A stretch of 45,454 nucleotides of DNA, the filler included, from Sphacelaria rigidula (Eukaryota): assembly GCA_964200075.2 (NCBI GenBank). It is 2 parts of 2 records of this genome, joined end to end, with 100 filler letters (N's around TTAATTAATTAA, not from the genome) between each part and the next. Parts side by side here need not be neighbours in the genome. Positions count along the whole stretch, not along the records: positions 1 to 22,680 come from CAXNAA020000319.1; 1 more part is not named here. One strand, given 5' to 3'. Shown in pieces: positions 3,330 to 45,400 of the stretch. Positions within the stretch are counted from its first letter, which is position 1. Each line of letters starts with the position of its first letter. The position numbers were made by a program, and so were the translations under genes. The notes below the pieces were generated by a model that worked only from the letters and a program-made list of their open reading frames with translations, made no database searches and was not told the origin of the DNA.

Positions 3330-5636
3330 TTACGCAGGGGGGGGAAACGGAGCCGAAACTGCCAGCTCCATCTTCATGCCTTCCTTTTCACCATAAAACA
3401 CCACTGAAGAAGCATCTACAGCAGCGTCTCCTGCCCGAAGGTGTTCACGAATCATGGACGGCGTCGTGCGAATCCGCTTCTTCATTCTTTCATCACAACT
3501 ACCGCTGGAGTTACTCTCAATTCTGCAACTCCCACCTTCATCAGAGGAGGTGGCCACGCCAACTCTCCTTCGCAAGCTCTGCATGGAACGCTGAAGGGGA
3601 GCACACTCTTCCACTTTCACCCTTGTGTGCGGATTTGTCCCCGAAGGTATGCCTTTGGCACCCTTGGCAGGCTGCGACGGCGCGGTACCAACACGTTCAC
3701 AACTTCCGAGCAAAACAGGCCCGAACCCGACGTCACCCCCACCACCCCTGTGACAGGTAGAATATTCGGGTTGTCTGTCCTGGGTGGAATTTTCATACAA
3801 GATGTCTGCATGTTGCCCTCGCCTGGTTAGTTGGCATACGTTACCCTGTTCGACGCCATCAACGCGATATACGAGCCGATTCGAGCAGCCCTCGTTGCCG
3901 TACCTGTTGCTCATTACATTGACCATCCCCAGCCTGGCGTGATCGGCACAGAACTCCGCCAACCGACTTCCCGCTACGCCGTACGATGGATGTTTAGAGC
4001 AGCCCTCGTTGCTGCACTTCTTGCTCGCCACATTGACCATCCCCAGCCTGGCGTGGTCGGCATAGAACTTTGCCATCCCATTTCCCGCTACACCGTGCGA
4101 TGGTTTCTTGGAGCAAACCTCGTTGCCGCACTTACTGCTCACTACATTAACCATCCCCACCCTCGCATGATCGGCACAGAACTGCGCCTTCCGACTGCCC
4201 GCTACACCGTGCGATGGTTGTTTGGAGCAACCCTCGTTGTCGCACTTCTTTCTCGCTACATTAACCATCCCCAGCCTGGCGTGGTCGGCACAGAACTGCG
4301 CCTTCCGACTACCCGCTACACCGTACGATGGTTGTTTGGAGCAACCCTCGTTGCCGCACTTCTTTCTCGCTACATTAACCATCCCCGCCCTGGCGTGATC
4401 GGCACAGAACTCCGCCCTCCGATTTCCCGCTACACCATACGACGGTTGTCTGGAGCAGCCCTCGTTGCCGCACTTTTTGCTCGCTACATTAACCATCCCC
4501 GCCCTGGCGTGATCGGCACAGAACTCCGCCTTCCGATTTCCCGCTACACCGTACGATGGTTGTTTGGAGCAGCCCTCGTTGCCGCACCTCTTGCTCACCA
4601 CATTGACCATCCCCGCCCTGGAGTGATCAACACAGAACTCCGCCCTCCGGCTTCCCGCAACACCGTACGATGGTTTCTTGGAGCAGCCCTCGTTGCCGCA
4701 CTTCCTGCTGATTACATTGACCATCCCCGACCTGGCATGGTCGGCACAGAACTCTGCCTTCCGGCTTCCCGTTACACCGTACGATGCTCGTTTGGAGCAG
4801 CCCTCTTTGCAGCACTTCTTCCTCGATACATTAACCATTCTCGCCCTGGCGTGGTCGGTATAGACCTCCGCCTCGCGGCTTCCCGCTACACCGTCCAATG
4901 GTCCTACGGGGGGGGGCTTTTTGCCACACTCCTTGCTCGCTACATTGACCATTCCCGATCCTGCGTGGTCGCCACAGAAGAGTCTTTCCCTGCTTCCCGC
5001 TACACCGTACGATGGATATTTGGAGCAGCCCTCGAAGCCGCACCTCTTGCCCACTACATTAACCATCCCTGCCCTCGCGTGATCGGGACAGAATTCCGCC
5101 TTCCGACTTCCCGCTACTCCGTGAGATCGATGTTTCGAGCAGCCCTCGTTGCCGCACTTCCTGCTCACGACATCGACCATCCCCACCCTGGCGTGGGTGG
5201 CACAGAACTCCGGCGTCCGGCTTCCCGCAACACCGTACGATGGAACTTTGGAGCAACCCTCGTTGCCGCACTTCCGGCTCACGACATTGACCATCCCAAG
5301 ACTTGCGTGGCCAACACAGAACTCCGGCTTCCGGCTTCCCGCTACACCGAACGATGGTCGTTTGGAGCAGCCCTCTTCGCCACACTTTTCACTTCTCACA
5401 TTGACCATCCCCACCCTTGCATGGTGAGCACAGAACTCCGTTTTCCGGCTTCCCGCTACACCATACGATGGTTTTTTGTAGCAGCCCTCATAGCCGCATT
5501 TCTTGCTCACAACATTGATCATCCCAGGACTTGCGTGGTCAGCACAGAATTCCGCCTTGCGGCTTCCTGCTATACCGTACGATCTTTGTTTGGAGCAGCC
5601 CTCGTTGCCGCACTGTTTGCTCCTTGGATTAGCCAT
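3330..5636 (-). CDS. EsV-1-7 cysteine-rich repeat protein (768 aa, single exon), putative multi-zinc-finger nucleic-acid-binding protein
   Basis: Uninterrupted 768-aa ORF. It has 15 full 38-aa units of consensus KKCGNEGCSKQPSYGVAGSRKAEFCADHARAGMVNVVS (C-x4-C-x16-C-x2-H) plus a partial 16th, matching the EsV-1-7 repeat family of brown algae and phaeoviruses. A non-repetitive tail of about 175 aa follows. The start codon is uncertain because a decayed unit lies upstream. Confidence 0.88.
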   Translation of the reverse strand: MANPRSKQCGNEGCSKQRSYGIAGSRKAEFCADHASPGMINVVSKKCGYEGCYKKPSYGVAGSRKTEFCAHHARVGMVNVRSEKCGEEGCSKRPSFGVAGSRKPEFCVGHASLGMVNVVSRKCGNEGCSKVPSYGVAGSRTPEFCATHARVGMVDVVSRKCGNEGCSKHRSHGVAGSRKAEFCPDHARAGMVNVVGKRCGFEGCSKYPSYGVAGSRERLFCGDHAGSGMVNVASKECGKKPPPVGPLDGVAGSREAEVYTDHARARMVNVSRKKCCKEGCSKRASYGVTGSRKAEFCADHARSGMVNVISRKCGNEGCSKKPSYGVAGSRRAEFCVDHSRAGMVNVVSKRCGNEGCSKQPSYGVAGNRKAEFCADHARAGMVNVASKKCGNEGCSRQPSYGVAGNRRAEFCADHARAGMVNVARKKCGNEGCSKQPSYGVAGSRKAQFCADHARLGMVNVARKKCDNEGCSKQPSHGVAGSRKAQFCADHARVGMVNVVSSKCGNEVCSKKPSHGVAGNGMAKFYADHARLGMVNVASKKCSNEGCSKHPSYGVAGSRLAEFCADHARLGMVNVMSNRYGNEGCSNRLVYRVDGVEQGNVCQLTRRGQHADILYENSTQDRQPEYSTCHRGGGGDVGFGPVLLGSCERVGTAPSQPAKGAKGIPSGTNPHTRVKVEECAPLQRSMQSLRRRVGVATSSDEGGSCRIESNSSGSCDERMKKRIRTTPSMIREHLRAGDAAVDASSVVFYGEKEGMKMELAVSAPFPPPA
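3855..5618 (-). repeat. Coding tandem array of 114-bp units (EsV-1-7 repeats)
   Basis: 114-bp periodicity is visible directly, e.g. recurrent cacagaactccgcc, ccgtacgatgg and ggagcagccctcgttgccgcac on the + strand. Confidence 0.95.
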
Positions 5637-5720
5637 CCCTACACCGTACGATGGTCGTTTGGCGATGTCCTCGTTAACCGCACAATTTGTTTACTTAATT
5701 GACCATCGGCACCTCCACGA
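5637..5720 (-). pseudogene. Decayed EsV-1-7 unit immediately upstream of the ORF start
   Basis: Minus strand reads MVN*VNKLCG/NEDIAKRPSYGV then GMANP. This is a repeat unit with a stop, a frameshift and an internal deletion. Confidence 0.65.
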
Positions 5721-6769: not shown

Positions 6770-7920
6770 ATGCACACCACAAATGTCTCGGCCTCAGGAA
6801 ACTGCATTCAACTTGAACCATTTGCGCGGATGAAGTGGCATGATTGAGAGGATGTTAGCATCCTCGTCATGAGTACCGTCCGGCCAATTTCGGCGTTGGT
6901 ACGTGCTCTAGCTGTAGTTGTTCGTATTGACACAACTGGTCGAGGACTCCAGGCCACAAAAGGCAGGCAAGTTTCTCGGCGATTGATGGCTACAAACCTT
7001 CAGTTTACGCAACACGCATGGACATGCATGTGACAAAGGAGTACTGAAAATTATACAACAAGCATATGGAACTACACCACAAAAACCGGGAGTAAACAAC
7101 CCAAGTTGATCTTTTCATGACTGAGTCGGGAATTTTACCAAACCTCAACGGAATCCTACTGTATTCTCGGTCAAGATCGACCCATCTTCCAAGCGATAGC
7201 TCAGAAACACGACATACTGAAGGGAAGGCAACTGGAACGACTGGTTATCACAACTAAAGCAACAAACACGAGCATTTCTGCTGCTTTATGCGAGAACCGA
7301 GAGTCAGTGCCTTGCAGAATGCTGGACCTACTCAGCAAACTTATAATCAACGTGTATTAACCAGGAGACACGAGATGGGTGGGTCAACCACACAATTCGA
7401 AATATAGGACAATGAAACTCCTCAGGTTTACTCATTAGAAAAGGAGTAGTAGGTATCGGTGTCTACCGACTACGCAGTGTCCATTCCGTAGGGGAGTCAC
7501 AAAGCCACGGTATGGCTGGAGCGGTGAAGACCATGCTTGAAGACATCAAGTTCGCGTTGGTTGGCGTATATAAAAGCTCAGGTCCCGCCTCAACACCGGT
7601 ACATGACAATCTCGAAGTATTCCGGAAGAGACCCCATAACTAATACATGGCTACATCAATGATGCTCAACGAATACACGATTCTCGACGAACCTGTGATG
7701 GACTGCGCCATTTCCTTGAAGGTCCTCCACAGTATGCCTGGAGAGTTGATGCAGAGTTTGCGAATACATCTGGCTTCACATGTGTAGGTAGATACGCAAT
7801 CCGCTTCCCGTGTTTGTCACGACAAATCAAAACCAACTACTGTGCGATTGGGACACCCCATTGTATGTGGTTATGGTAAACTTGGATCCTTTGGTATGGA
7901 CTGGAACCGGGGCGTTGGAG
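6770..7920 (+). mobile_element. Degenerate Helitron/Helentron-like relic: Pif1 helicase C-terminus followed by an apurinic-type (EEP) endonuclease
   Basis: Colinear decayed motifs across stops and frameshifts. Helicase: VSRRLMATNLQFTQHAWTC..QRST (motif V, cf. RxQFPLxLAWAxTIHKSQG) and QPKLIFS*LSR..NLNGILL (motif VI, cf. YVALSRxxxLxGL). Endonuclease: CLAECW (cf. CLxETW), GVVGIGVY, FALVGVYKS, LIHGYIND (cf. GDFN) and PTT..TPLYVVMVN. Confidence 0.55.
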
Positions 7921-9454
7921 CAAAAAAGCAAGAGTCGGCAGAACGGACCTCAAATGCAGCAAATTTTGCACCAGCACATTGGACACGATAGCTGCTGAAA
8001 AATGGTGCTTCGGGTAGACGAGAATATCGACACATAGTAGCACTTTTGAGTCATAAAATCTTAGTGCACAGGGCGTGTGAACGTTACTCTAGGAGCGAAT
8101 CACACCCAGCCCCCAACACAAGACCGGGGGTAATGTTTGGGAGGCATTTACTTCAGCAGGTCGACATACTTGAATTCTTGTGGCCTCGGCGTTTTGTTCA
8201 TGATTACCTTGTTCATGTCGTGGCATCTGTTACTTCATTCTTGGTGTCGTACATGAGTTCTCGGTGTTGTTTGACTATCGCACACTAGGTGATCTCCAAT
8301 AAATCGAGGCATGGGTAAAAGGTAGACGCACTCGAGGTGAACAAAACGTCATCACTCGCCACTGATGATGGAAACTTGAGCGAGGGGAAAGATTTACAAA
8401 GGTATGATAAAAATAGCCCACCCACAATCGGTTGTATACACAAGTGCTACAAACCTACCATCATCACACAGACCGCGCTTGTTCTTCCTCTTGTTCAACG
8501 TGACTGACACCGACTGCAATCCCGTCTGATTCCTTGCTCCCACGCCGATGACACAATGTTACATGTCTTTGTTAACAGTGATACAGCATTACGGCTTCGG
8601 TGTAATCAGTTCTTCTGATGACATCACGCAGAAGCGCTTCTCCGAGGTTAGTTTCCTACTTGAGAGGGGGAAAATTCTCAGAAAAAATTAACTTCGAACA
8701 AACTTCAACACTAACACCACCACCAACCTTAACCCAACGAAGGCACACCGAGAACCCTCGGGCGAGAGAGTGGAGAGTGTTGTCTAGGCAAAGAGCGCGT
8801 TGCCAGGCCTCAAATCGGCGCCCCAGGCGCCGGTATCCACAAAACCGCGGGATGTGCAAGCTAGGAGCACGCTTGGAGGATAGCCCCAATAAAGATCCGG
8901 ATTTGGATGTTTACCCTAAAGTCAAGTCGAACTATCTGAGAAATTTCTTACCCTCCCAAGTGGTGAACTATACTGGCTTCTCCACAGACAGCAACCTTGC
9001 AACCTCCCCTCCCCATGTCATGTCCTCCCAACTTGCCCTCGGAAGGAACGACATGGTGAGTAGGAGCCTCACTCTAGACCAGTAGGTGAGGTTTCCGATA
9101 CATGTCGATACTTTGCAGGGGACAGCACCCAATCGGATCTTGACGTGTGCTCTAATTGGGAGTATCGAGGTCATACCGTACGTTAGGTTCATGTCGCCAT
9201 GTGTTGGACACAAGATTGGCCCCCGCGCAACATGCTCAAGCCTTAGACGGCGATGCAGGTAGTCCATCTCGATCACGCATATTTTCCTCGAGTGAAGTTG
9301 ATGCCGATTCATCGGGTGACCTACCGTCGCGGTCAAAGGGTTACACATGTACTTACCCCGCCGGCTATGGAGATGCCGACATATCGGTATACCGAGTCAG
9401 GAGAATAGATAGAAAATAGTGAAGAGTCCCACCGCGAATGATGACGGTCATTCG

Positions 9455-9823: not shown

Positions 9824-10107
9824 CACGGGTGGCCACTGGTGCACGTTACGGGAGGTTATTTCACTATATAACCTGGGCTATACCCATCATCTGATGTAAG
9901 GTCGGGTAACCCACGTTACAGGAGGTTACACAGCAACATAAACTAGATTATTTTCAGCACCTCATGCAACGTCGCGAGATCCACATTACAGGAGGTGATA
10001 CAGCAAGCATAACCTGGACTACTTTCAGCACCTGATGTGAGGTCGCGTAATCCACGCTCCAGGAGGCTACATGACACTATTACCTTGATTATTTGCAGCA
10101 CTTTAGA

Positions 10108-10537
10108 ACACGTTATTTCACAAATTGGGGATGGATTGTTTATTGGGGATGACAACCCGGAGAGTCCAAATCTTCGTATCCACACCAAATCTTCGGAATA
10201 TCGTTCCATTTCTTCACTTGCCGGTAGTTTTTGACAACTACTACAAGTCATACATATTTGGATTTCGATCACCGAAATGTTGGGGCCCTAAGTGAAAAAC
10301 GATTTTCGGGGAATTTTGGTGATCCGATCGGACCTCAAAATTGGTTTTTCAACTAGGACTCCAACATTTCGGTTGTCGGGATCCAAATTTGTATGGCGTG
10401 GAATAGTTGTCAATCGCTACCAGAGAGTGAAGAAATGGAACCATATTTCGGAGATTTGATGTGGATAGGAAGACTGTAATTCTCCGGGTTCTCATCCGCC
10501 AAAAAAAAAACAGCCCAAATTTGTAAAATCACGTAGT
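10108..10537. mobile_element. Fold-back MITE, family F copy 1
   Basis: About 200-bp imperfect inverted arms. Homologous to 23349-23762 and 43005-43405 (atcttcgtatccacaccaaatcttcg / tgtggatacga). Confidence 0.8.
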
Positions 10538-16607: not shown

Positions 16608-18042
16608 CACACGTCGGACAGATCAGCTGCCTATAGCTCGAGCTAGCTCTTTTTTAGCGTAGCTCTCTAGTGAGCTATGAGAGCTACATGAGCTACGCAT
16701 GTTTTCCTTGGGTGAGCTATGAGAGCTGTATGAGCTACGCACGTTTACCGTACGTGAGCTACCAACCCGTAGCTTATCAGCTCATATTCGTCCTGAGTGA
16801 GCTATGGGATCTGTATGAGCTACGCACGTTTGCGATAGGTGAGCTACCAACCCGTAGCTCATCAACTCAGATTCGTCCTGGGCGAGCTATGAGAGCTGCA
16901 TGAGCTACGCATGTTTCCCCTGGATGAGCTACCAACCGGTGGCTCATCAGCTCATATTCGCCGTCGGTGAGCTATGAGAGCTGCATGAGCTGCACCTGTT
17001 TGCCCTGGATGAGCTGCGAGAGATGCATGAGCTACACCTGTTTGCCCTGGATGAGCTGCGAGAGATGCATGAGCTACACATGTTTGCCCTGAATGAACTG
17101 TGAGAGCTACGGGAGCTACGCATGATTGCACTGGGTGAGCTTAAGAGCTACGGGAGCTACGCCGATCTTGGACTTGTTTCTGTTCCGATGCTCATGCACG
17201 TTGATATTGTACGTACGTGACAACGGTTGGATGTGCACACACCTGTTCCGTTTCGTGTAACGATGGATTTGCTTCTTGTCAACACCAAAAATCAACATGG
17301 CTGCATCAGAAGTCATCCGCATCATAGCCACCACATACACACACAACCACAGACGCACACACGACCACACACACACACAAAATTCGCCCTGCATGGCGAC
17401 CGCGGGGGGCAGCAGCTCTAGCCGCGCTTCAGTCGTACATGATGTGGTGCAACTGGACCCTTCGCAACAGGCGATCAATGTGGAAGACGGGAGTGCACTT
17501 ACCCACATCAGCACATGTTTGCCTTGGGGGAGCTGTCGAGCGTAACTCATCCGCATACGTTTTCCGTGGGCGAGCTGTAAGAAGTGCGTGAGCTACACAT
17601 GTTTTTCCGCGGTGAGCTTTAAGAGCTAGGTGAGCTACGCATGTTTGCCGTGGGTGAGCTACCGAACATAGCTCATCCGCGCATGATTTATCTGGGTGAG
17701 CTGTGAGAGCTACATGACCCGCACATGTTTGCCCTGAGTGAGCTATGGGATCTGTATGAGCTACGCACGTTTGCGATAGGTGAGCTATGAGAGTTGCACG
17801 AGCTGCGCGTGTTTACCCTGGGTGAGCTACCAACCCGTAGCTCATCAGCGCATATTCGCCCTGGGTGAGCTATGAGAGCTGCATGAGATACGCATGTTTG
17901 TCATGGGTGAGCTACCAACTCGTCGCTCACCAGCGCACGTTTGCTTTGTGTTGAGCTGTAGGACGTAGCTCACATGTACATGTTTGACTACAAGTGAACT
18001 ACCGCCCGCAGATGAGCTAGCTCATGAGCTGTCCTACGTGTG
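16608..18042. mobile_element. Non-autonomous hAT/P-like TIR element built from a 42/43-bp GAGCT minisatellite
   Basis: TIR CACACGTCGGACAGATCA vs TGAGCTGTCCTACGTGTG (16/18 match) and a perfect 8-bp TSD CTCCTTTT (16600-16607, 18043-18050). Same-orientation tandem units fill about 16660-17160 and 17520-18020. Confidence 0.85.
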
Positions 18043-23348: not shown

Positions 23349-23762
23349 CACGAGATTTTACAACTTGGGGGTGTTTTTTTTTAATTAAGGAGAAGAAACC
23401 CGGAGAATTGAGATCTTCGTACCCATACCAAATCTTCGGAATATGGTTCAATTTCTTCACCTGCTGGTAAAGATTGACAAATACTACACGCCACACAAAT
23501 TTGGAATTCGACAACCGAAATGTTGGGGTCCTAGGTGAAGAACCAATTCTGGGGGAGTTTGGCAATCTGATCCCATCATCGTAATTCCCCAAAATTGTTT
23601 CTTCACCTAGGACCCCAATATGTCGTGTAGTAGGTGTCAATAGCTACCAGTAGGTGAAGGAGTGGAACTCTATTTCGAAGATTTGGTGTGGATACGAAGA
23701 TTTTAATTCTCCGGGCTGTCATTCTCAATGAAAAATCCACCCCCAATTTGTAAAATCCCGTG
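23349..23762. mobile_element. Fold-back MITE, family F copy 2
   Basis: Termini CACGAGATTTTACAACTTGGGGG / CCCCCAATTTGTAAAATCCCGTG with long inverted arms. Confidence 0.85.
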
Positions 23763-26669: not shown

Positions 26670-27175
26670 TTGTAGATCACATCGAGAAGTGCTGCGACGA
26701 AGATGTTGAACAGCAACGGGGACGACCACCCTTGCCTGAGTTCTGGCAGGCGTGACACTACTCTGATAATTCGCCGTCATCCACCTGTATCCAATCTTGC
26801 ATGTCGTCTCGAAAGGTACACGTGACCTTGATAATCCGCGGCGGAGTCCGACACTAACCCTAACCCTACCCTTAAAACCCTAACCCTAACCCTAACCCTA
26901 ATCCTAACCCTAAGAAATACTTCCCGCAACGGCGTGCAGTCTACGGAGCCTTCGACCTTCGGCTGGTCAATGAAGCGCGGTTTCAGTGGGGTATTCCTCG
27001 CCCATCCCAACTTTTGCTGTCGGCGTAGTGCAAACATCATGTCGATGGTCGATTGTTTCGCCGCAAATCCAACCTGTTCTTGCGGGGGAAAATCCATGCT
27101 TCCTCGCAGAAGTACCGATTCTCCCAGCTACAGTTTTGAGAAGTTTTCCCACCTGCGCTACCAAAAGAACGAACG
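26670..27175 (-). mobile_element. RTE-like LINE reverse transcriptase relic
   Basis: LLVAQVGKLLK...QEQVGFAAKQSTIDMMFALRR...FIDQPK..GSVD...PPRIIKV..FRDDMQ...LRQGWSSPLLFNIF. Confidence 0.85.
26854..26913. repeat. Interstitial telomeric tract (CCCTAA)n inside the LINE relic
   Basis: About 10 hexamers, mostly perfect CCCTAA. Confidence 0.9.
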
Positions 27176-42128: not shown

Positions 42129-43004
42129 TCTACTAGAGGGTAGTGCCGTGAACTTGATATTACGATTCGGTTAGGTTCTTCCACCTCTAAGTGTATTGAA
42201 CTTCAGGTTTTCATAGACGAAAAGGATACTGGTGATTCTGATGGTGCCCAGCTGGGAGTTGAATTTGATTGCTGCCCCAAATTGTAAATACAGCGATTCT
42301 TTCTGATACCCATGTAACGATTGTTTCTATCCTTGTCCTTCTACGTTATGGAATGGGCAGTGCTGTGGTTGTTTCCTCTCTGTGGAATCACTCCCTCTAC
42401 GAACATGCGAGACAATCGGTTCACATACGTTGGGTTCACGTAGCTAGAGGACGCTAGAGTGATACGCACATCCTCAGCAGCAGTTCTTCGTCGATTGACC
42501 GGTGCACTTATTATCGCAATTTGACTGGTCCTTTTTGAATCCAGCCATGGTCACAATAATACACATGTACCCGAGGTAGATCAACAGAGGCACTTGTTCA
42601 AGGGACCTTGATCTCGAGAAAAGGGTAGAAACGCAAGATGAAGGAGAAAAATTACCGCACAACCTGACGTGAACGTCAAGCTATGAACTTACCACGATCC
42701 CAGGGAACCTAGGCAAGTCCTGGCAGGGCTTCAGATGAGAAGCCTTGAGATGTCGAAAAGCAAGCCGTGGAGGCAGGTAGCGACTCGCCTATCTGAAGAC
42801 CGGTATTGAGGGGCCTGCATATTCGTGCAAACTCCATTTGTCATCTCATGCAGTATCTGTCCTATTGTAAAACGGTGATTTCTTGACTCGTCCATTCTAT
42901 GTGGTGGTTCCCACATCACTCCCCCCCTCTCGTGAACCTCCTGGAGGTTTTTTGTGAGAAACCTTTTACGCCGGCTAGCGGTTGAAATGTTGCCTTTTAA
43001 TTGA

Positions 43005-43405
43005 ATTTTTCATTGGGGATGAGAACGCGGATAATTGAAATCTTCGTATCCACACCAAATCTTCGTAATATGGTTCCATTTCTTCATCTGCTGGTAGCTA
43101 TTGGAAGCTACTGCACACTATACAAATTTTGATTTCGATAACCCAAATGTTGGGGGCCTAGGTGAAAAACCAGTTTTGGGGTCCGATCGGATCACCAAAT
43201 TTTCCCAAAATGGGTTTTTCCCCTAGGACCTCAACATTTCGGTTATCAAAACCAAAATTTGCATGGCGTGTAGGTTTTGTCAATAGCCACCAGCAAGTGA
43301 AGAATGGAACCACATTTCGAATATTTGGTGTGGATACGAGGATTTTGATTCTCCGGGTTGCTCTCATTCTCAATAAAAAACCATCCCCAATTTGTAAAAT
43401 CCCCA
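43005..43405. mobile_element. Fold-back MITE, family F copy 3
   Basis: Same arms and centre (gtccgatcggatcacc) as copy 1 in reverse orientation; left terminus eroded. Confidence 0.8.
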
Positions 43406-44399: not shown

Positions 44400-45400
44400 T
44401 GTTGTGAGGTTGATGCCTGCCCTGGGCAGCTTGTTCACAATGAGTAAAGTACAAGTTGATTATGGGAAACAAAACGAGTGATCGTCGAAGGGATCAACCA
44501 ATCTCATCCGCAGCCTCGAGAACCACACACCAAGCCAATGTCCCGCGGGTTATCCTCTCTTTCGCTCGGGGTAGCGTTCCTTCCTACTGAAACTTCATAA
44601 GAAACGTATCTGACTACAATACTTCAATAATCCGAAACACATCCTACAATACTCCGAAAGACATGTGCAGATGCAGAACTGACCAACAAACTAATACCCT
44701 CCCTTGGGCATCTGCTACATCAACAAGTAGTCTTCTTTGATCAACTCTCAGAACTCTTGGCGAATATATCTTGCTTTATGCAACACCCAACAAACATTTT
44801 CGGTGTCGAGTAAAACCCCGACGAGGTAACGCTTTGGTCAAAATATCAGCGTGTTGCTCGTCACCCCGTTCATGATCCAACGTTATCCTCGATTTGTCCA
44901 CCAACTCCCTAGGAAAATGATGACGAAGATATATGTGCTTACTGTTTGACGAGCTTAATGGATTTTCAGCTAAAGCAATCGTACCCTCGTTGTCTTCCAA
45001 TGCCCTAATGGCCTCTGCTTTCCTATTGGGTAAGAGAAAATCCACAATTCCGTCTACAAACAGAGCTTCTTTCACACCATCCCCCATACTCTGCTTCCGT
45101 GGTCGAAAGTGTAACACTTTTCTGCATCCTAGAGTACCATGCTACTGGTTGTAATGCGTGAGAGGACCGCGTGCTTAGAGGACCGCGTCGTAGTTCAAAA
45201 TACCTCAGGATCGGCGTTTTTTAAAACCAATCGGGTCCCTCCCTGCAGGTACCACGCCCCCGACCCTAACCCCGACCCTAACCCTAACCCTAACCCTAAC
45301 CCTTACCATAGGGGTGTTCAAATCCCAATGCGGTCCTCTAAGCACGCGGTCCTCTCACGCATTACACTGGTGATCTATCACACAAAACTGCACCAAACAA
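44400..45400 (-). mobile_element. Ty1/copia LTR retrotransposon 3' end: RNase H, PPT and probable 3' LTR
   Basis: GAVLCDRSPVAWYSRMQKSVTLSTTEAEY/GDGVKEALF...EDNEGTIALAENP...SKHI..RHHF.RE...QHADILTKAL, with stop at 44776. Polypurine tract AAGGGAGGG (about 44697-44705) is followed by TATTAG; a possible LTR end ...ACAACA lies at 44400. Confidence 0.85.
45150..45366. mobile_element. Young MITE (TGT...ACA termini, Ginger-like) carrying telomeric repeats
   Basis: Perfect 37-bp TIRs (45150-45186, 45330-45366), perfect 5-bp TSD CTGGT and an internal (CCCTAA)n tract at about 45260-45305. Excision restores the copia frame S-P-V-A-W. Confidence 0.92.

Follow-up and report, generated by a model that had tools for sequence, protein, structure and literature searches.

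A fifteen-unit EsV-1-7 array from Sphacelaria rigidula belongs to a family whose arrays vary most from unit to unit at three columns rather than one

The question raised by a gene in a 45,454-nucleotide stretch of the Sphacelaria rigidula genome (assembly GCA_964200075.2; "the window", two parts joined end to end with 100 filler letters between them) is whether its long array of EsV-1-7 repeats could read nucleic acid, and whether it would do so through one residue per unit. EsV-1-7 proteins are among the largest gene-family expansions of brown algae and include the developmental regulator IMMEDIATE UPRIGHT (IMM); if this array were a modular nucleic-acid reader, it would suggest a mechanism for the family and possibly a new programmable binding scaffold. 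The first-pass annotation proposed a code in the style of transcription activator-like effectors (TALE) and pentatricopeptide repeat (PPR) proteins, in which the residue following C-S-K would be read out unit by unit. We find instead that the positions differing between units of an array are three columns (9, 35 and 36), and that the pattern plausibly fits a multi-residue, zinc-finger-array-like surface, or loop drift, better than a one-residue TALE/PPR code. What the window adds is a clean 15-unit example, a statistic across the family that singles out three candidate specificity columns instead of one, and a conserved tail whose basic cluster is followed by a psi-K-x-E-L motif at the C-terminus.

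The locus carries an intact brown-algal host gene with a single exon, which is an ordinary member of a known family, though an unusually long one. With about 50% G+C, the window looks like eukaryotic DNA and contains just six open reading frames of at least 180 aa in 45 kb, by far the longest being the 768-codon frame that encodes P0001 (coordinates of this and all other features are given in the table). P0001 matches the Pfam family EsV_1_7_cys (PF19114) over 14 stretches with 703.4 bits (cut-off 25, E 1.6e-217), which confirms the family assignment made at first pass. Tandem Repeats Finder reports a single array with a period of 114, 15.3 copies, 81% matches and 0% indels, and a repeat search returns 15 copies spaced by exactly 114 nt, with DNA identities among units of 66-95%. 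We cut units every 38 residues from Cys9 of P0001 and refer to positions 1-38 within a unit as columns; the ligand spacing C-x4-C-x16-C-x2-H recurs at this 38-aa period and is exact in 13 of the 15 units. The interval first proposed for the array, 3855-5618, covers it but cuts into the decayed unit 16 and leaves the strand unnamed. At the other end, the initiator methionine is the conserved Met in the G-M-V-N-V of a truncated unit 0, with a stop a few codons upstream, and the resulting start, MANPRSKQC, resembles the start M-V-N-V-x-x-K-x-C of annotated homologues from the same species. No canonical intron joint falls within the reading frame in the contigs from sequencing runs; joints that run contigs place inside the array were considered as introns and rejected, as they are unit-to-unit skips.

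Within this array the most variable column is indeed the one after C-S-K. Column 9 reads Q, K, R, V, H, Y, G, R, K, Q, Q, Q, Q, K and H in units 1-15, where G belongs to the decayed unit 7, and its codons are CAA, AAA, CGA, GTT, CAT and TAT, with GGA in unit 7; residues and codons are exactly those listed at first pass. Its amino-acid entropy of 2.55 bits (2.35 without unit 7) is the highest among the 38 columns. The accompanying description of a fixed scaffold is overstated, as columns 29 (2.15 bits), 35 (2.10) and 19 (2.04) come within about 0.5 bit of it, followed by column 37 (1.69), and 19 of the 38 columns (16 without unit 7) hold at least three residue types. The secondary variation described at the next residue and at S-[Y/F/H] is present as well: column 10 is P in twelve units, R in two and A in one, and column 12 is Y in ten, H in three and F in one, with one additional D. 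Unit pairs that share their column-9 residue are 84.0% identical in nucleotide sequence elsewhere, against 80.8% for all other pairs (permutation p 0.02). This association is gone once units 10-13 are collapsed (p 0.36), and is thus entirely due to that young block; the run of four glutamines lies in these youngest units and therefore reflects identity by descent.

The same columns stand out across the family. A search of 5.8 billion proteins yields 240 matches at E <= 0.001, of which the best 120 serve as the homologue set; the closest named homologues among the matches listed come from Sphacelaria rigidula, Ectocarpus and Pylaiella. No near-identical protein is found among the 5.8 billion, the best being 47-56% identical over 37-55% of the query. 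The 120 homologues provide 571 strict units, and 73 arrays with at least five strict units were used for within-array tests. Over all 571 units, column 9 ranks only fourth of 38 with 3.51 bits (the maximum is column 7, with 3.65 bits), and its most common residues are R (23%), Q (22%), I (9%), H (7%), K (5%) and L (5%). Within arrays, the three highest mean entropies are those of column 9 (1.84 bits), column 35 (1.78) and column 36 (1.75), and column 9 is the most variable column in 21 of the 73. Wilcoxon comparisons place column 9 above every other column tested (p < 0.003) except columns 35 (p 0.43) and 36 (p 0.23). Hot spots are columns 9, 11, 35 and 36 in the 34 arrays of the nuclease type described below, and columns 9, 36 and 35 in the 39 others. 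The per-column entropy comparison that had been suggested for the one-residue code thus gives column 9 the highest mean in both subfamilies, but with columns 35 and 36 statistically tied to it.

Mutual information over 341 two-unit windows separates two kinds of variable column. The top couplings are those of columns 27, 13, 17, 21, 4, 28, 25, 2 and 15 with themselves in the next unit, whereas the coupling of column 9 with column 9 in the adjacent unit is weak (0.144); that of columns 35 and 36 with the next unit's column 9 is also weak (0.09-0.10) and is swamped by the same-column couplings. Taken together with the entropies, these couplings indicate that columns 9, 35 and 36 differ from unit to unit, while the other variable columns are array-specific. 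What survives of the single-column idea is therefore a set of unit-to-unit variable positions, comprising three columns rather than one. We further note that the conserved basic residues K8, K37 and R/K38 directly adjoin column 9 and columns 35 and 36.

The patterns of substitution bear on selection in the array. Pairwise Nei-Gojobori counts over 14 units, with unit 7 left out, give an array-wide proportion of synonymous differences (pS) of 0.366 and of non-synonymous differences (pN) of 0.145, a ratio of 0.40, and many scaffold columns, for example 13, 16, 26, 30 and 34, have changed only synonymously. This pattern marks purifying selection on the gene, which is thus no dead copy. The ratio of column pN to array pS exceeds 1 in just three columns (1.64 in column 29, 1.39 in column 9 and 1.33 in column 35) and is below 1 in the rest. 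As a neutral reference, we used forward simulation at omega = 1 on a FastTree topology, scaled to the observed pS, where the tree derives from 114 sites and the root codon is assumed. For column 9 the simulation gives P 0.011 for pairwise non-synonymous difference, 0.032 for entropy and 0.17 for its six residue types, and for column 29 it gives 0.035, 0.068 and 0.43 for the same measures, all of these values being nominal, with no correction for the choice of the top column among 38. The excess of non-synonymous change predicted for column 9 thus appears nominally in two of the three measures, but not in the number of residue types. On these nominal values, column 9 is neutral or mildly diversifying, and positive selection is not demonstrated.

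Support for a role in nucleic-acid targeting comes from relatives in which the array is fused to another domain. In 59 of the 120 homologues (among P0003-P0121), the array is followed by a conserved C-terminal domain with the motifs R-P-D ... E-x-D-E-x-x-H ... C-x-C-E-x-x-R ... R-[YWF]-N-P-D, whose invariant residues, in the numbering of the P0035 tail, are P71, D72, E85, D87, E88, H91, R102, R119, N121, P122 and D123. The fusion proteins derive from metagenomes, some green algae and unnamed sources, and none of the 59 is brown-algal by name. A predicted model of the domain (P0035 tail; predicted local distance difference test, pLDDT, 88.6; predicted template modelling score, pTM, 0.81) finds as its best Foldseek match the Hjc chain 2eo0_B (E 1.5e-3, probability 0.98), followed by SfsA, a restriction-endonuclease-like protein, McrC, Cas4-family proteins, Bax1 and the R2 endonuclease. 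VIA-align places it nearest to the FASTKD4 RAP domain (Z 7.9, root-mean-square deviation 3.5, 110 residues aligned) and I-Bth0305I (3r3p_B; Z 7.8, deviation 3.4, 95 of 98 residues aligned), with NGO0050 at Z 7.3 and Vsr at Z 6.6. The modelled domain thus appears to have a Vsr/I-Bth0305I-like PD-(D/E)xK fold, as the top matches are solely such nucleases and form a coherent list, though with middling scores. I-Bth0305I itself is a homing endonuclease that acts on DNA and whose catalytic domain resembles Vsr (PMC3239194). These fusions make nucleic-acid targeting by the repeat plausible. A C-x2-C ... C-x2-C segment precedes the nuclease-fold domain in the fusion proteins.

Two further properties of the array bear on nucleic acid. 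The array is strongly basic, with an isoelectric point of 9.48 and a net charge of +48, each unit contributing between 0 and +5. In addition, units 8-12 match the profile of the SBP domain with 33.3 bits (E 6.1e-8, cut-off 27) over positions 1-35 of 75, which correspond to the first C3H finger of that domain. SBP is the DNA-binding domain of plant SPL transcription factors; it spans roughly 76 aa, has one C3H and one C2HC finger, and recognises a GTAC core (PMC8281205). The window array has no counterpart of the C2HC finger or of the SBP nuclear-localisation part, and only profile positions 1-35/41 of 75 are matched. The spacing of the SBP C3H finger equals the C-x4-C-x16-C-x2-H of the repeat. 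No SBP chain or structure is recovered by Foldseek or VIA-align with a five-unit model, or by searches of PDB sequences.

An AlphaFold2 model of units 8-12, computed from an alignment of 62 homologues and without metal, has a mean pLDDT of 89.6 and a pTM of 0.52. DSSP assigns the same pattern to every unit: a strand at columns 12-14, a bridge at column 22, a three-residue helical turn at columns 24-26 (the C-x-x-H) and a strand at columns 31-33. The loop that joins the C-x4-C knuckle to the first strand contains column 9. By our own reading of this model, rather than as the result of a tool, the unit looks treble-clef-like. Weak likeness to the zinc-binding domain of the coronavirus helicase nsp13 appears twice independently, as the Pfam family CoV_NSP13_ZBD in 3 of 63 homologues (E 3.3e-4) and in the best-ranked Foldseek matches of the array model, which are nsp13 chains (E about 1); noise or a general likeness of zinc modules probably accounts for it.

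Taken as a whole, these data lead us to a tentative reading, possible rather than probable, in which an intact gene encodes a zinc-module array that binds nucleic acid through a multi-residue patch in each unit. Each 38-aa unit would most likely hold one zinc ion, as the literature proposes for the motif, through the predicted ligands Cys1, Cys6, Cys23 and His26, and would fold into a small module that combines a zinc knuckle with a beta-hairpin, a helix of one turn and a strand formed by G-M-V-N-V. Strung together without spacers, the fifteen modules would form a strongly basic rod, which may act in the nucleus as a nucleic-acid-binding and most likely DNA-binding module. Recognition would rest with a small patch per unit and not with a single residue, the candidate patch being column 9 with linker columns 35 and 36, perhaps also column 11, each beside a conserved basic position (K8, K37 or R/K38). 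The array would have grown by unit duplication, most recently of units 10-13, and diverged by point mutation. A far-reaching version of this idea, which we regard as unlikely, is that the array represents a new-fold modular nucleic-acid reader with columns 9, 35 and 36 as its patch, that giant viruses use it to aim Vsr-like homing nucleases, that brown algae co-opted it without the nuclease into hundreds of retargetable nuclear regulators, and that the window gene would read a target of 15-45 nt.

Several points weigh against nucleic-acid binding through such a patch. The fusion argument is indirect because the fusions sit in distant relatives (26-40% identity); the window gene and the named brown-algal homologues are without the nuclease domain, and no nuclease-fold match reaches Z 8 or an E as low as 0.001. 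The SBP score adds up pieces that are each below threshold, and just one of 63 proteins scanned shows it. A scaffold that binds proteins or RNA would equally be expected to be basic and variable at its surface, the divergence of column 9 is compatible with a nearly unconstrained loop residue, and the Wilcoxon p-values are too optimistic because the arrays share kinship. The relative placement of units in the model is uncertain because its pTM is just 0.52. Against the PDB, Foldseek with the array model returns nothing at E <= 0.001, the best match being SARS-CoV-2 nsp13 (E 0.94, probability 0.2); VIA-align over 48,161 chains gives a RING as the sole match (Z 2.2), and profile searches of PDB sequences with multi-unit and single-unit alignments give nothing meaningful. 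For the modelled array, then, none of the fold searches recognises a DNA-binding fold. The passages of the literature examined state no ligand, binding data or code for any EsV-1-7 protein, in agreement with the first-pass annotation.

In a competing explanation, somewhat doubtful but to be taken seriously, zinc stabilises the array as a scaffold for contacts with proteins or with other partners that are not nucleic acid, and columns 9, 29, 35 and 36 are simply its least constrained positions, drifting after duplication with no code. Many small treble-clef-like zinc modules (RING, LIM, PHD) bind proteins, and the one structural match of the array is to a RING, with no DNA-binding fold recognised. 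The pN/pS values of about 1.3-1.6 at columns 9, 29 and 35 are close to neutral, the count of residue types at column 9 is unremarkable under neutrality, every column-9 codon except GTT lies one step from CAA or from another, and shared column-9 residues follow backbone similarity until units 10-13 are collapsed. Against such a scaffold stand the nuclease fusions in 59 of the 120 homologues, which call for a partner that targets nucleic acid; the uniformly basic charge, the recurrence of the three hot-spot columns in both subfamilies and the nominal excess of divergence and entropy at column 9 likewise favour the nucleic-acid-binding array. As a candidate nucleic-acid binder, the array thus stays plausible on its charge and on the nuclease-fold domain in its homologues, but the one-residue code once attached to it is unsupported. 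That code, in which the residue after C-S-K reads one base or short word so that QKRVHY-RKQQQQKH spells a target, draws on the top rank of column 9 in this array and within arrays of the family, on its nominal excess over neutrality and on its not being homogenised between neighbouring units. R, Q, H and K often contact bases, and they make up about 57% of column 9 family-wide. Yet columns 35 and 36 are equally variable, and with half of the columns varying among units of 66-95% identity there is no constant backbone with one variable site; the alphabet of column 9 is broad, 14% of it is I or L, four consecutive glutamines are explained by descent, and the modelled unit is a beta/zinc module rather than a helical hairpin. 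We therefore regard the TALE/PPR-style code as highly improbable.

It is also very unlikely, as judged from the coding sequence, that P0001 is a decaying or non-functional copy within a fast-turnover tandem family, its reading frame open merely through youth. In its favour are the loss of two zinc ligands from unit 7 and of one from unit 14, the decay of units 0 and 16, and the size of the family, which is known to be clustered and counts 2018 members in 31 genomes, as many as 335 of them in a single species. Eleven sequencing runs contain the stretch or part of it, and none is recorded as RNA. All four of the runs examined for depth, whose kind is unknown or guessed, have exact contigs over the unique tail at 3669..3960, with a depth of 115-190, and contigs of the same four runs at 7086..7354, 7479..7697 and 8185..8467 reach a depth of 2-4; the tail depth is at most a weak hint of transcription, or may reflect copy number instead. 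Such decay is hard to reconcile with 768 codons free of stops and frameshifts despite a unit divergence of pS 0.37, with the low pN/pS and strictly synonymous change at many scaffold columns, with relatives, 52-64% identical, that retain both the tail and the decayed unit 16, and with a start and end common to annotated Sphacelaria genes.

Comparison with known systems helps to place the array. It shares its repeat and the C-x4-C-x16-C-x2-H spacing with the rest of the EsV-1-7 family (PF19114; Ectocarpus IMM, EsV-1 gene 7), and like the Ectocarpus members it has no other Pfam domain; it has 15-17 units against the five repeats given for IMM in the excerpts seen. Unlike the family, it has its own conserved tail, and no close orthologue is found in the collections searched. 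The array-nuclease fusions have the same repeat, period and within-array hot spots 9, 35 and 36 (plus 11), but the window gene lacks their R-P-D ... E-x-D-E-x-x-H ... N-P-D domain and ends in a low-complexity conserved tail instead. Indeed, no nuclease domain is found anywhere in the 45-kb window, where tblastn with the 59 domains gives a best E of 0.049 and a hidden Markov model search of six frames a best E of 0.63.

C2H2 poly-zinc-finger arrays (such as KRAB-ZNF) consist of tandem, spacerless zinc modules with a constant scaffold, basic linkers and few variable surface positions, and grow by duplication. They are therefore a works-like analogue of the window array, although its spacing is not C-x2-4-C-x12-H-x3-5-H, its period is 38 rather than 28 aa, it has no zf-C2H2 Pfam match, and its model has no beta-beta-alpha unit with a recognition helix. 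The likeness to TALE and PPR/PUF arrays lies in tandem units of fixed length with one position differing between neighbours. The units of TALE and PPR proteins are metal-free helical hairpins; in TALE arrays, two neighbouring residues alone vary and the units are otherwise nearly identical, while PPR and PUF repeats have two or three code positions. By contrast with the TALE hairpin of about 34 aa, the window unit is modelled as a beta/zinc module of short strands and a three-residue turn; the modelled fold is equally non-helical when set against PPR and PUF, and there is no TALE, PPR or PUF Pfam match. The Pfam model Zf_WRKY19 (PF24906), a land-plant zinc-finger model, is matched by P0052, P0024 and one more of the 63 family members. 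This is a hint of remote kin among land plants, a group said to lack the family. A 2026 preprint finds EsV-1-7 to be the largest orthogroup, reports no further Pfam domain in any Ectocarpus EsV-1-7 gene and favours a viral origin (10.64898/2026.04.27.720984); a 2026 review presents IMM as a possible case of co-option (PMC12993054).

The tail of P0001 is a small conserved domain of low complexity. Among 1.84 billion representatives, phmmer finds five relatives (E 9.3e-49 to 1.3e-10, 44-64% identity), all of them fragments or proteins without an array. An orthologue with an array, sought through the tail, is found neither by a word-based search, which returned nothing, nor among these five. Common to the tail relatives are an S-D-E-G-G ... 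C-D-E-R stretch and a basic cluster, which reads K-K-R-I-R in P0001 and is a putative nuclear-localisation signal. The C-terminal motif takes the form [VLM]-K-[VLM]-E-L-x-V-S-A-P across relatives and also ends several Sphacelaria EsV-1-7 proteins; its psi-K-x-E resembles the SUMOylation consensus and may serve as such a site.

Table. Features of the P0001 locus and of the remainder of the window
Feature	Position	Strand	Remarks
P0001, complete single-exon open reading frame	3330..5636	-	768 aa: 8-aa N-terminus, 15 EsV-1-7 units, decayed unit 16, 152-aa conserved tail, stop
Array as reported by Tandem Repeats Finder	3883..5622		
Fifteen in-register units	3903..5612	-	38 aa (114 nt) each; full ligand set in 13 of 15
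Fifteen column-9 codons	5586-5588, 5472-5474, ... 3990-3992	-	one per 114 nt
Truncated unit 0	5613..5675	-	across the start codon; tblastn of a two-unit query reaches 5675; upstream translation
Unit 1	5499..5612	-	
Unit 7	4815..4928	-	decayed, in frame; Cys6 to Pro, Cys23 to Tyr
Eight-G run within unit 7	4905..4912	+	read as Pro-Pro-Pro
Units 10-13	4131..4586	-	youngest block; 85-95% nt identity among themselves; all Gln (CAA) at column 9
Unit 14	4017..4130	-	Cys23 to Tyr, Gly5 to Val
Unit 15	3903..4016	-	
Decayed unit 16	3789..3902	-	29% identity to unit 10; kept as such in tail relative P0122
Non-repeat tail	3333..3788	-	residues 617-768
K-K-R-I-R cluster	3468..3482	-	basic cluster also present in tail relatives
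C-terminal motif M-K-M-E-L-A-V-S-A-P-F	3345..3377	-	
Antisense open frame, 623 aa	3831..5702	+	spans the whole repeat array
Inverted-repeat pair	10110..10534		about 200 nt, 21-nt gap
Further copies of the inverted repeat	23375..23554, 43002..43304		13 and 33 kb away
Minisatellite, two blocks	16670..17937		42/85-bp units, blocks about 350 bp apart
Telomere-like (CTAACC) x9.7	26854..26913		
Telomere-like (ACCCTA) x7.5	45263..45307		

A few additional observations concern the array locus itself. The eight-G run within unit 7 is a slippage-prone tract in the middle of the reading frame. The antisense frame has no match in a Pfam scan and is most likely a by-product of the repeat, open because the unit has no stops in that frame. 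A Pfam match of P0001 to DUF1490 (62.8 bits) was rejected as a sum over repeats, as no single stretch passes.

Elsewhere in the window, telomere-like hexamer tracts occur at two places, and the minisatellite is built from GTGAGCTATGAGAGCTGCATGAGCTAC...-type units. The inverted-repeat element resembles a dispersed short foldback, similar to miniature inverted-repeat transposable elements, and in the runs examined for depth, contigs reach a high depth at 10001..10400.

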